Source: an uncultured Candidatus Actinomarina sp.
GTDB taxonomy: Bacteria > Actinomycetota > Acidimicrobiia > Actinomarinales > Actinomarinaceae
DNA length: 64,000 nt
Assembly: GCA_902535055.1 (NCBI GenBank)
Contig: CACASI010000003.1
Span: 65,336 to 129,335 of the forward strand
Reading direction: 5' to 3'
Of the stretch, positions 11,912 to 14,491 are shown piece by piece. Each line of letters starts with the position of its first letter. Position 1 is the stretch's first letter. A program made the position numbers and the translations under genes. Below the pieces are notes generated by a model. The model did no database searches, had not been told where the DNA came from, and saw only the letters and a list, made by a program, of their open reading frames with translations.

Positions 11912-12853
11912 ATGTCAGAACCTATGAAAAGCAGCATGTTTACCGGTTCTAATCTATTAATTAAGTTTGTAACTGCTGCAGCTTTGGTCTCAGGAGCGGT
12001 TGCATATACTGCTTATTTCTTAATTGGTGATGGAAACATTTCTTCAGATGATATTAATAAAATTTTTGATAAGGCATTAGAAGAAGATCGTGAGATTGTA
12101 ACTACATTGTGTGAAGAAAATTTAAATGAATCTGCAGCAGTTCAAGCATTTCTCGAAAACAATAGTGATTCAAACATTACTGTTAACAATGATGTACTAG
12201 ATACTTTTAAGAATAGATGTAATGATCTATTGGCTACAACCCCCTCTAGTTCTCTAGGCGCTACGTCAACTTCATCTTCAACAACAGTATCTTCAAATGA
12301 AACAACTTCAGATGAAGTTATTGACTTTGATGAATTGTTTTATGAAGAATATTTTAATGTGAAATGGTATTGGGATGTCATTTATTGGGATATAGCAACC
12401 GATGAAATTGTTACTCCTTATTATCAAGAAATTTTTCCAGTTATTTATATAGATGAGGATTCAAAAGAATATCAAATTATCACCAAAGCATTTCAATTAT
12501 GGGACGATGCACTTGACACTGTCTCTTTTGAAAAAGATGATTCAGGCTCTCCAAATGCACAACAAATAACAATAGGTCTTGTAAATGACTTACGAGATGA
12601 AAATGGTTTATTTGAAATTGAATGGGATGAGAACAATGAGATAATTAAAGCCTCAATAATGATTGAAAAAGATCTCGATGAATACTTTTTAACAGCAGTC
12701 CTTCATGAAATAGGCAATGTTCTAGGCCTTGGAGATATACGTACGAGAGGGGATTTACAAAGCATTATGGAGGATCCATATGATGAGATTTTTAAAGATG
12801 ATAAATTATGGGAATTTGATATCAAAATGATAAAACAGCTTTATGGAGAATAA
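11912..12853 (+). CDS. Membrane-anchored metzincin-like protein (M7/M10-like) with degenerate zinc motif
   Basis: It has an N-terminal TM helix, a Ser/Thr-rich linker and a C-terminal domain ending in VLHEIGNVLGLGD..SIMEDP. This is an HExxHxxGxx(H/D)-like motif followed by a Met-turn-like SIM. Confidence 0.55.
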   Translation: MSEPMKSSMFTGSNLLIKFVTAAALVSGAVAYTAYFLIGDGNISSDDINKIFDKALEEDREIVTTLCEENLNESAAVQAFLENNSDSNITVNNDVLDTFKNRCNDLLATTPSSSLGATSTSSSTTVSSNETTSDEVIDFDELFYEEYFNVKWYWDVIYWDIATDEIVTPYYQEIFPVIYIDEDSKEYQIITKAFQLWDDALDTVSFEKDDSGSPNAQQITIGLVNDLRDENGLFEIEWDENNEIIKASIMIEKDLDEYFLTAVLHEIGNVLGLGDIRTRGDLQSIMEDPYDEIFKDDKLWEFDIKMIKQLYGE

Positions 12854-12899: not shown

Positions 12900-13364
12900 T
12901 TAAATACCTGAATCAAAATACATAGGAGGACTTACTCCTATTGTTTGCCAACACATCCCACTACTAAACTCACATTCATCAAGTACAAATACCCAAGTAA
13001 CAATAAAATACTCATTTTTGTTATTTAAGATTTTTATTTCATAGTGGACTGTTTCACTATCTTTTTGGATAGTCTCATATGAATAATCAGTTAAATCGAT
13101 TATTGAATTATATGGATCAGAGGTAAGCATTAATTTGAATCTGTCAATTGGACCCGTTACTTCTTTATTATCTTTATGAGCGTTGTTCCAAATAATTTCT
13201 ACAGACTTATCTGGATCTTTAGAAAAGTTTTGGTAACTTTCCATAATTTCAACCAATATCTCATCTGGCTCTCTTATTTCTATAGTTTGAGCCGCAGGCT
13301 CTGATTGATTACAAGTAATAAAAAGTAAGCAAATTATAAAAAATTTTAAACTTTTTTTAACCAC
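12900..13364 (-). CDS. Hypothetical secreted lipoprotein
   Basis: It starts at GTG with signal/lipobox MVKKSLKFFIICLLFITCNQ. I recognised no family. Confidence 0.6.
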   Translation of the reverse strand: MVKKSLKFFIICLLFITCNQSEPAAQTIEIREPDEILVEIMESYQNFSKDPDKSVEIIWNNAHKDNKEVTGPIDRFKLMLTSDPYNSIIDLTDYSYETIQKDSETVHYEIKILNNKNEYFIVTWVFVLDECEFSSGMCWQTIGVSPPMYFDSGI

Positions 13365-13452
13365 GAAATACTAAAGTTACCACCAAATAAAGATGCAATA
13401 AAAATGTTAGAAATATGAAAGACCAGAAAAGTCTTTTTTCTAATTTGCTCAC
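13357..13452 (-). CDS. Micro-ORF, 31-aa hydrophobic peptide (paralogue B)
   Basis: It starts at GTG and encodes MSKLEKRLFWSFIFLTFLLHLYLVVTLVFRG. The start overlaps the stop of the upstream paralogue (GTGA), and the stop overlaps the GTG of the lipoprotein gene. It differs from its paralogue at synonymous sites (see findings). Confidence 0.5.
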   Translation of the reverse strand: MSKLEKRLFWSFIFLTFLLHLYLVVTLVFRG

Positions 13453-13556
13453 AACGAGATTGTGAGAAGCCCCATTGAATCAATTACTAGGTACATATGC
13501 AATACAAAAGCTACACCCATAAAACTCCAGAAGGTACGTTTTTCTAATCTACTCAC
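13449..13556 (-). CDS. Micro-ORF, 35-aa hydrophobic peptide (paralogue A)
   Basis: It starts at GTG, preceded by AGGA with a 7-nt spacer, and encodes MSRLEKRTFWSFMGVAFVLHMYLVIDSMGLLTISL. Confidence 0.5.
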   Translation of the reverse strand: MSRLEKRTFWSFMGVAFVLHMYLVIDSMGLLTISL

Positions 13557-13596
13557 ACTTGAATCCTAGTAATAATAAAAAGTTTTACCTAATTAG

Positions 13597-13755
13597 TTAT
13601 TCCTGGTTTGCTCTTTCATATGCTTGGCTGTACAAAATTAATGTAGGAGCCCATAATCCAATATATATTGCAAGCTGAGAGTCATCCAAAACAACGTAAA
13701 TAATTACAGATGCAACAACAGAAACAATACTTGCGTATAAACCTAACTTTATCAT
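13597..13755 (-). CDS. Small membrane protein, 52 aa
   Basis: An ATG ORF encodes MIKLGLYASIVSVVASVIIYVVLDDSQLAIYIGLWAPTLILYSQAYERANQE, with two hydrophobic segments. It is below the ORF-track cutoff. Confidence 0.4.
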   Translation of the reverse strand: MIKLGLYASIVSVVASVIIYVVLDDSQLAIYIGLWAPTLILYSQAYERANQE

Positions 13756-13809
13756 TTATATCCTTTCAGTTTATATTATAATTTAACACGATTATTAATA
13801 TTAATTTAT

Positions 13810-13953
13810 ATGATTGAAACATTAACATCAAATCCATTAACGTTAGTGCTTATATTCCCTGTAGTGACGTTGACAATATTCGTTGTTGGGATAATTAGGA
13901 TGGATATTGCTAAATTTAATCAAAAACATGTTTTTGTCACTGAAGAAGAGTAA
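13810..13953 (+). CDS. Small membrane protein, 47 aa
   Basis: An ATG ORF encodes MIETLTSNPLTLVLIFPVVTLTIFVVGIIRMDIAKFNQKHVFVTEEE, with one TM helix. It lies just upstream of the 166-aa ORF. Confidence 0.35.
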   Translation: MIETLTSNPLTLVLIFPVVTLTIFVVGIIRMDIAKFNQKHVFVTEEE

Positions 13954-13990: not shown

Positions 13991-14491
13991 ATGGACCTTA
14001 ATAATATTGAAAATCTGGAAGATGTAGAGCTTTTTGATCTTCAGAATCAAATCACCGAAATTATAAAAAAAAGAAATCTTGAAAAGGGAGATATTGAAGA
14101 AATAATAGATAATTCATTCAATATAGGTTTTCCAAAAATTGATGGTGTCGGACTAAACCCATGGATTGATAATTCCTTAATTATTTGTCCTGGAGCAAGA
14201 ATTGATAAAACTAAAACTCGCCATATTTGTAAGTTTATAGTTATTGACGAAGAATGGTCTTGGGAATCGCCTCATATGATAAGTGATGTAATCAGAAGAG
14301 ACCAATCGTCTAAAAATTTTAGACAACACTCTATTACTTTAATCTCACCTTTTGAAGGGATGAAGGTTCAGGTAATATCCCAGAAATCGCAACAAGGCAA
14401 ACATCTTGTTGAGGGAGTCGATTCTTTTGAATTTAGAAATGGAAAGTTAGAAAAAACAATGACCAAAACCTCTAGGTCTAGAGATCACTGA
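13991..14491 (+). CDS. Hypothetical protein
   Basis: It is a clean 166-aa ORF with no motif I recognise. Confidence 0.5.
   Translation: MDLNNIENLEDVELFDLQNQITEIIKKRNLEKGDIEEIIDNSFNIGFPKIDGVGLNPWIDNSLIICPGARIDKTKTRHICKFIVIDEEWSWESPHMISDVIRRDQSSKNFRQHSITLISPFEGMKVQVISQKSQQGKHLVEGVDSFEFRNGKLEKTMTKTSRSRDH

Follow-up and report, generated by a model that had tools for sequence, protein, structure and literature searches.

Conserved genes for predicted single-helix membrane micro-proteins, duplicated in tandem in one lineage of Candidatus Actinomarina

The DNA examined in this study was a 64,000-nt stretch, referred to as the window, from an uncultured Candidatus Actinomarina sp. (assembly GCA_902535055.1), corresponding to positions 65,336 to 129,335 of the forward strand of contig CACASI010000003.1. 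The assembly comprises 0.99 Mb with 32% GC, and few free-living bacteria are as small and as streamlined as Ca. Actinomarina. Against a median intergenic spacer of 2 to 3 bp and a very small number of paralogues (PMC7771536), a 630-bp region lacking annotated genes is unusual in the genus, and so is the retention of a tandem duplicate. The seemingly empty stretch contains three or more small genes that are under selection. Four genes follow one another on the minus strand. The first (13597..13755) encodes a 52-aa membrane protein with two helices and has an ATG start preceded by an AAGGA Shine-Dalgarno sequence; a promoter-like site (TTAATA-18 nt-TATAAT, 13775..13804, minus strand) was found 5' of it by a consensus scan. 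After a 40-nt spacer comes pepA (13449..13556), which encodes 35 aa from a GTG at 13556 to a TGA at 13451..13449, with a basic N-terminus and one transmembrane helix. The third gene, pepB (13357..13452), encodes 31 aa from a GTG at 13452..13450 to a TAA at 13359..13357, and the TGA of pepA and the GTG of pepB share the tetranucleotide GTGA. The last gene (12900..13364) encodes a 154-aa lipoprotein with its lipobox cysteine at position 18, and a terminator-like hairpin with a T-run lies at its 3' end (12922..12941, minus strand, pattern scan). The four-gene unit is flanked by a convergent gene (11912..12853, plus strand) and a divergent gene (13991..14491, plus strand).

A sequence-only reading of this DNA had described two GTG-initiated minus-strand micro-ORFs of 31 to 35 aa joined by a GTGA overlap, and all of its coordinates were confirmed. 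Its further statement that the stop codon of the second micro-ORF overlaps the lipoprotein GTG also proved correct, since pepB shares 8 nt with the lipoprotein gene, whose GTG is at 13364. When pepA was searched in six frames against the complete 0.99-Mb assembly, it matched pepB at an E value of 1e-6 and nothing else. The same reading had proposed that the two ORFs form a translationally coupled paralogous pair, which is supported by the related loci analyzed below; the GTGA overlap is retained in every two-copy locus.

The codon differences between the copies, which had been interpreted as a signature of selection on the peptide, were all present (CGT/AGA, AGT/TCT, AGT/AGC, TTT/TTC, TAC/TAT, CTA/TTG, and GTA/GTG). 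Selection was then analyzed across 48 distinct loci with 28 alignable codons, using pooled Nei-Gojobori pN/pS. The variable sites at codon positions 1, 2, and 3 numbered 10, 5, and 19 in copy A, 9, 2, and 20 in copy B, and 16, 12, and 26 in the single copies; the expected codon periodicity, with variation concentrated at position 3, was thus seen in all three groups. The pooled pN/pS values were 0.21 for copy A, 0.09 for copy B, and 0.28 for the single copies, with synonymous sites near saturation (pS of 0.5 to 0.7). In a comparison of A with B within a genome, pN/pS was 0.43, with synonymous sites saturated. The codon-periodic variation and the pN/pS values of 0.09 to 0.28 therefore indicate that selection acts on the peptide, and the proposal of peptide-level selection was upheld by these related loci.

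Seven peptide residues were invariant (K6, F9, F12, F17, H20, Y22, and L23), and V24 was replaced by Ile in one genome. Conservation was concentrated on one helix face (moment of 0.145 against a null of 0.062, P = 0.006). The peptides have a basic N-terminus and nearly lack a C-terminal tail, and the N-terminus is probably cytoplasmic; the positive-inside rule implies a single-pass orientation with the N-terminus in and the C-terminus out. Judged by comparative sequence data, pepA and pepB are real selected genes for membrane peptides predicted to form a single helix. It is extremely improbable, in our estimate, that they are exported hydrophobic peptides, such as a signal or a bacteriocin. 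Small hydrophobic products encoded beside a gene for an extracytoplasmic protein would agree with such a role, but the peptides have neither a leader nor a cleavage motif, residues are conserved in the manner of a helix face embedded in the membrane, and the unit, bounded by its convergent and divergent neighbors, includes no genes for maturation, export, or immunity.

In scans of Pfam, NCBIfam, PHROGs, and PADLOC, both peptides, the 52-aa protein, the lipoprotein, and their distant homologues gave only sub-threshold noise. Profiles of the peptide, of the 52-aa family, and of the second-gene family of other Acidimicrobiia described below matched no chain of solved structure at E values up to 10. 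The ESM Atlas returned scores of 0.80 to 0.90 to unnamed clusters, which were uninformative. The peptides form a new family, whereas the kind of gene, one for a small single-pass membrane protein, is already known.

Next, we examined the distribution of the family. The peptide profile matched 49 of the 64 genomes of the genus and 11 of the 12 high-quality ones, and none of the 49 matches contained a stop codon. Two tandem copies were present in 15 of the matching genomes and one copy in the remainder. The tandem pair is thus real, as first described, yet it arose by duplication within one lineage, and most of the genus carries the gene as a single copy. The profile had no match in the only other genus of the order, which is represented by one genome of 71% completeness. 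Against 1.84 billion representative proteins, it detected four clusters only, all of the Actinomarina type and 31 to 35 aa long; a further match, to a repetitive protein of 804 aa, was rejected as a false hit. Because only these four clusters were found and the sister genus had no match, the peptide family appears restricted to the genus Ca. Actinomarina, as far as the searches can see.

The 52-aa gene and the peptide gene were both present in the same 49 genomes and both missing from the same 15. In terms of synteny, which the earlier reading had suggested checking, the 52-aa gene adjoins the peptide gene in every peptide-bearing genome, and the lipoprotein gene does so as well except in one deep clade. 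In this deepest clade (L021, L022, and L079), the peptide gene begins directly after the stop codon of the 52-aa gene, and no lipoprotein gene was found at the locus or elsewhere in those genomes. Because the lipoprotein gene is missing there and the 52-aa gene never is, the 52-aa gene is the constant partner of the peptide gene.

Across the genus, the peptide reading frame was open except in two genomes in which the neighboring genes were also broken. In the one-contig genome G009, the 52-aa, peptide, and lipoprotein genes all carry multiple indels at the syntenic locus, and the peptide gene has lost a 19-nt piece together with its His-Tyr-Leu-Val motif. In G010, the peptide gene is frameshifted and the lipoprotein gene contains stop codons, and in G002 and G012, the entire block is missing. 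The joint decay or absence in these four genomes indicates that the three genes form one dispensable unit, and their intact state elsewhere reflects selection and not recent origin. Since 15 of the 64 genomes lack the module or retain it in decayed form, it does not serve a core function.

The signals for expression were examined by aligning 31 distinct upstream sequences at the peptide start codon. T-12, A-11, and T-7 were invariant (31/31), and A-8 and C-13 were present in 90% and 94% of the sequences, respectively. The resulting TAnnAT box has its 3' end 6 nt ahead of the start codon; two lineages use ATG at this place and the others GTG. In the window it reads TAGGAT (13563..13568, minus strand), ends 6 nt 5' of the pepA GTG, and is proposed as the promoter of a leaderless mRNA. 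In the window's own genome, TANNNT was counted relative to the first start codon of ORFs of at least 150 aa, and it peaked at -12 with a frequency of 13.6%, four-fold above the background of approximately 3.5%; Shine-Dalgarno-like words reached only approximately 6% at their peak. Such a peak is an established hallmark of leaderless genes. These genes appear to be common in Ca. Actinomarina, and the counts constitute sequence evidence for their wide occurrence in an uncultured lineage. From the invariant -10 box and the genome-wide TANNNT peak, we infer a leaderless pepA-pepB-lipoprotein mRNA. The AGGA previously noted before the first GTG is present, at 7 nt; however, it is specific to the subclade, and the conserved signal is the -10 box instead. 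Because the box in this subclade doubles as an AGGA Shine-Dalgarno sequence, a leadered transcript is also possible, in which TAGGAT could serve ribosome binding on read-through mRNA from the promoter of the 52-aa gene.

In five related loci (L009, L011, and L024 to L026), a perfect palindrome, TGTGA-N6-TCACA, lies at -35 to -20 before the peptide GTG and overlaps the -35 region of the promoter. It corresponds to the consensus of CRP/FNR-type binding sites and may confer lineage-specific regulation in one Actinomarina clade. A different repeat, the 7-bp inverted repeat CTCACAA-N5-TTGTGAG at 13448..13466 (minus strand), had been noted to span the pepA stop and the pepB start, and it is present there (13466..13448). 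Its fold was no more stable than that of shuffled sequence (z = 0.00) and the repeat was not kept in the sister lineages L005, L008, and L034, and it was therefore judged incidental.

Wherever a lipoprotein gene is present (43 of 43 distinct loci), its first 8 to 17 nt lie within the last peptide gene. In mycobacteria, an ATG or GTG at the 5' end of an mRNA suffices for initiation, RTGA coupling of small ORFs is over-represented, and coupled leaderless small ORFs are common (Shell et al. 2015, PMC4633059). The Actinomarina peptide genes share with these ORFs the phylum Actinomycetota, an RTG start with an adjacent -10 box, the lack of a Shine-Dalgarno sequence in most lineages, the RTGA overlap, the first position in the operon, and omission from standard annotation (PMC4633059). 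They differ in that there is no sequence relationship, the Actinomarina product is a conserved transmembrane helix, the peptide-lipoprotein overlap is 8 to 17 nt and not 4 nt, and the Actinomarina transcript start is deduced from sequence.

This arrangement raises the alternative that the leaderless upstream ORFs act in cis, delivering ribosomes to the lipoprotein gene, and that the peptide product itself matters little. The overlap kept in every lipoprotein-bearing locus would be expected from such a role, as would the lack of a Shine-Dalgarno sequence of the lipoprotein gene's own, no AGGAG-like motif having been found before its GTG, and the mycobacterial ORFs provide a common precedent (PMC4633059). 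However, the amino-acid sequence is under strong purifying selection with seven invariant residues on a helix face, a pN/pS of 0.09 is not expected of a duplicated leader, and the peptide gene is intact and conserved in the clade in which the lipoprotein gene was not found. We therefore regard a purely cis-acting function as unlikely, although a cis role and a peptide role are not mutually exclusive.

The origin of the tandem copies was examined by using a tree of the linked lipoprotein. All two-copy genomes formed one clade with 100/100 support, thereby indicating a single duplication event. The tree also has a very long stem branch, with 1.32 changes per site, which is the same branch as that of the peptide duplication. 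The distance from the pepA GTG to the pepB GTG is 104 nt (107 nt in one lineage), which is accounted for by 84 nt of coding sequence that can be aligned and a further 20 nt, and these 20 nt immediately 5' of pepB encode the 7-residue C-terminal tail of pepA. In two lineages, the likeness of the 20 nt to the ancestral upstream region is still recognizable (P = 1e-4 and 6e-4 against 20-mers drawn at random from the genome), and an intact TATTAT or TACTAT is kept there at -12..-7 before pepB. The likeness has faded in the lineage to which the window belongs (P = 0.14). The spacing of the GTG codons and the promoter resemblance together indicate that the duplicated unit extended from approximately -20 to +84 and that the pepA tail is former promoter DNA that is now read through, a clear case of a promoter copy turned into coding sequence. 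Copy A retains an ancestral-looking helix, and copy B has diverged in mid-helix and is now the more constrained of the two (pN/pS of 0.09).

The lipoprotein belonged to no sequence family, and its fold was examined with an AlphaFold model built from 20 orthologues (mean pLDDT of 85.7). Compared with chains of solved structure, the model matched 58 at a Z score of at least 8, with a best Z score of 10.5 (root mean square deviation of 3.0 over 101 aligned residues). The best 50 of the 58 chains were dominated by NTF2-like, ketosteroid-isomerase, CaMKII-hub, and VirB8 types, and the top Foldseek rows were the lipid carriers MlaC/Ttg2D and the N-terminal domain of PBP2a. The modeled fold is NTF2-like, an alpha+beta cone with three or four helices packed on a curved antiparallel sheet. 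Members of the NTF2-like superfamily are binders of small hydrophobic ligands, enzymes, or scaffolds, and because these roles are so diverse, the fold alone assigns no function to the lipoprotein. Beyond the lipobox cysteine, the lipoprotein has two invariant cysteines (C131 and C138). Its set of invariant aromatic, His, and Asn residues may line a pocket.

In addition to the peptides, we examined the 52-aa protein, which has 30 invariant columns within the genus. Clear homologues were present in 31 of 237 sampled genomes of other Acidimicrobiia, and the family comprises at least 7499 database clusters, including one from Rhabdothermincola salaria, all annotated as hypothetical and without a Pfam domain. 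No Pfam or NCBIfam family matched the 52-aa protein above threshold; DUF2061 (PF09834) aligned over profile positions 1-39 of 52 at 16.3 bits (E = 0.014), below its gathering threshold of 23.1 bits. The protein also gave a weak match to the choline ABC-transporter substrate-binding model TIGR03414 (E = 0.0024), and a 72-aa relative is named a glycine-betaine-binding protein by one database source; this naming of a hydrophobic segment is probably spurious. One relative of 113 aa (P0102) consists of two such two-helix units fused in tandem, a hint of dimerization. Longer forms of the family were considered as a clue to function and set aside, being rare and heterogeneous and for the most part mis-called N-terminal extensions.

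A single sub-threshold match of a distant 52-aa homologue to a phage holin family (E = 0.022) bears on the possibility, raised by the sequence-only reading, that the peptides are toxin-like. They would then damage membranes in the manner of type I toxins or holins and be restrained by an antisense RNA or by the neighboring small protein, and their size, basic N-terminus, and single hydrophobic helix do resemble those of type I toxins. Several results argue against this proposal. No Rfam match was present in the region at E values up to 1, the junction has no stable RNA structure, and no match of meaningful score was obtained from PADLOC, PHROG, Pfam, or NCBIfam. The peptide gene occupies a single fixed syntenic locus per genome with vertical inheritance and is tightly coupled to the lipoprotein gene, and the decay in G009 affected all three genes with no selective loss of a toxin. 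A toxin function was accordingly considered quite unlikely.

The genomic surroundings of the 52-aa homologues in other Acidimicrobiia showed a recurrent arrangement. In 19 of 20 located loci, a small one-helix gene of 38 to 105 aa lies directly 3' of the homologue, overlapping it by ATGA or GTGA or beginning no more than a few nucleotides from its stop codon. These two-helix and overlapping one-helix genes (loci L089 to L113) constitute an undescribed class-wide two-gene membrane module. The wider context in six distant Acidimicrobiia varied, with neighbors including CbiX, DUF427, a short-chain dehydrogenase, MarR, DUF2071, gamma-glutamyltranspeptidase, and P450. A lead from synteny with NDH-2 was dropped because the NDH-2-like neighbor was only 23% identical to the NDH-2 of the window.

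The class-wide module, a two-helix gene of approximately 55 to 85 aa followed by the one-helix gene, resembles the Actinomarina locus in its homologous first gene and in its gene order. In contrast, the second genes are not detectably homologous (hhalign probability of 0.07% between the Actinomarina peptide and the second-gene family), and the charges of the second gene imply an orientation apparently opposite to that of the Actinomarina peptide. Also unlike the module, most Actinomarina have a peptide gene with its own predicted promoter in the spacer of approximately 40 nt. Because similarity was not detected and the charge-implied orientation is opposite, the relationship is one of positional analogy only, with homology unproven, and the likeness in position may be coincidental. 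This work defines a new micro-protein family whose genomic position links it to the unnamed, very large two-gene membrane module of the Acidimicrobiia.

Altogether, we favor, at slightly better than even probability, the explanation that the peptides are membrane micro-subunits that partner the 52-aa hairpin protein and are co-produced with the NTF2-like lipoprotein. Transcription would start at the G of the pepA GTG, directed by the -10 box, to give a leaderless mRNA, and ribosomes would be handed to pepB through the GTGA overlap and then to the lipoprotein gene through the 8-nt overlap. The peptide would pack through one helix face (F9, F12, A16/F17, H20, and L23/V24) onto the 52-aa hairpin protein, forming a small membrane-embedded complex. 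The lipoprotein would be produced in fixed proportion and probably works with this complex at the outer face of the membrane. The two peptide genes are a tandem duplicate, made in one lineage, of a gene of approximately 31 aa, and the former promoter copy became the pepA tail. Among the functions offered previously, a small membrane subunit fits best, and a toxin or a secreted peptide fits poorly. The joint occurrence of genes that lie side by side provides no independent support for a partnership, and fold, family, and domain-fusion searches indicated no biochemical function for the module. The value of these results lies in annotation and hypotheses rather than in a solved mechanism.

CydX, KdpF, AcrZ, and MgtS are single-pass bacterial micro-proteins of the membrane, each serving a larger membrane protein as an accessory subunit or a regulator. 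Like them, the Actinomarina peptides have approximately 30 aa, one helix, conservation on one face, and a gene located beside that of a presumed partner. Unlike them, the peptides have no Pfam or NCBIfam match, cognate large partners such as cytochrome bd, Kdp, and AcrB are not encoded in the neighborhood, and the only constant neighbor is itself a protein of 52 aa.

A second comparison concerns cytochrome b559, in which two adjacent genes (PsbE/PsbF) encode one-helix peptides that each give one histidine to a shared haem. The pepA and pepB products are likewise one-helix peptides encoded side by side, paralogous to each other, and each carries one invariant intramembrane histidine with aromatic neighbors. 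By this analogy, H20, flanked by F17 and Y22, might keep a cofactor, for example haem, in place between two helices, in a homodimer in the single-copy species and in an A/B heterodimer here, so that the peptides would form a minimal redox or pigment module with the 52-aa hairpin and the NTF2-like, ligand-binding lipoprotein. However, the peptides show no sequence similarity to cytochrome b559, with no Pfam match, their histidine is located in the outer helix half, and most Actinomarina have a single copy; this version seems very unlikely to us.

A separate reading, which likewise seems very unlikely to us, would extend to the whole class. The two-helix/one-helix pair of the Acidimicrobiia, with its at least 7499 clusters, would then be an unrecognized membrane complex, in which Actinomarina would have swapped the small subunit for an unrelated, inverted peptide, one copy of which was extended by promoter-born residues.

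A further small ORF was observed beside the four-gene unit. It encodes 47 aa with one helix at 13810-13953 on the plus strand, 5' of the divergent 166-aa gene (13991..14491). A 42-aa homologue precedes the counterpart of the 166-aa gene in G009 (L115, 3153..3281), beside the decayed peptide operon, and the 47-aa ORF is probably a further real small gene.
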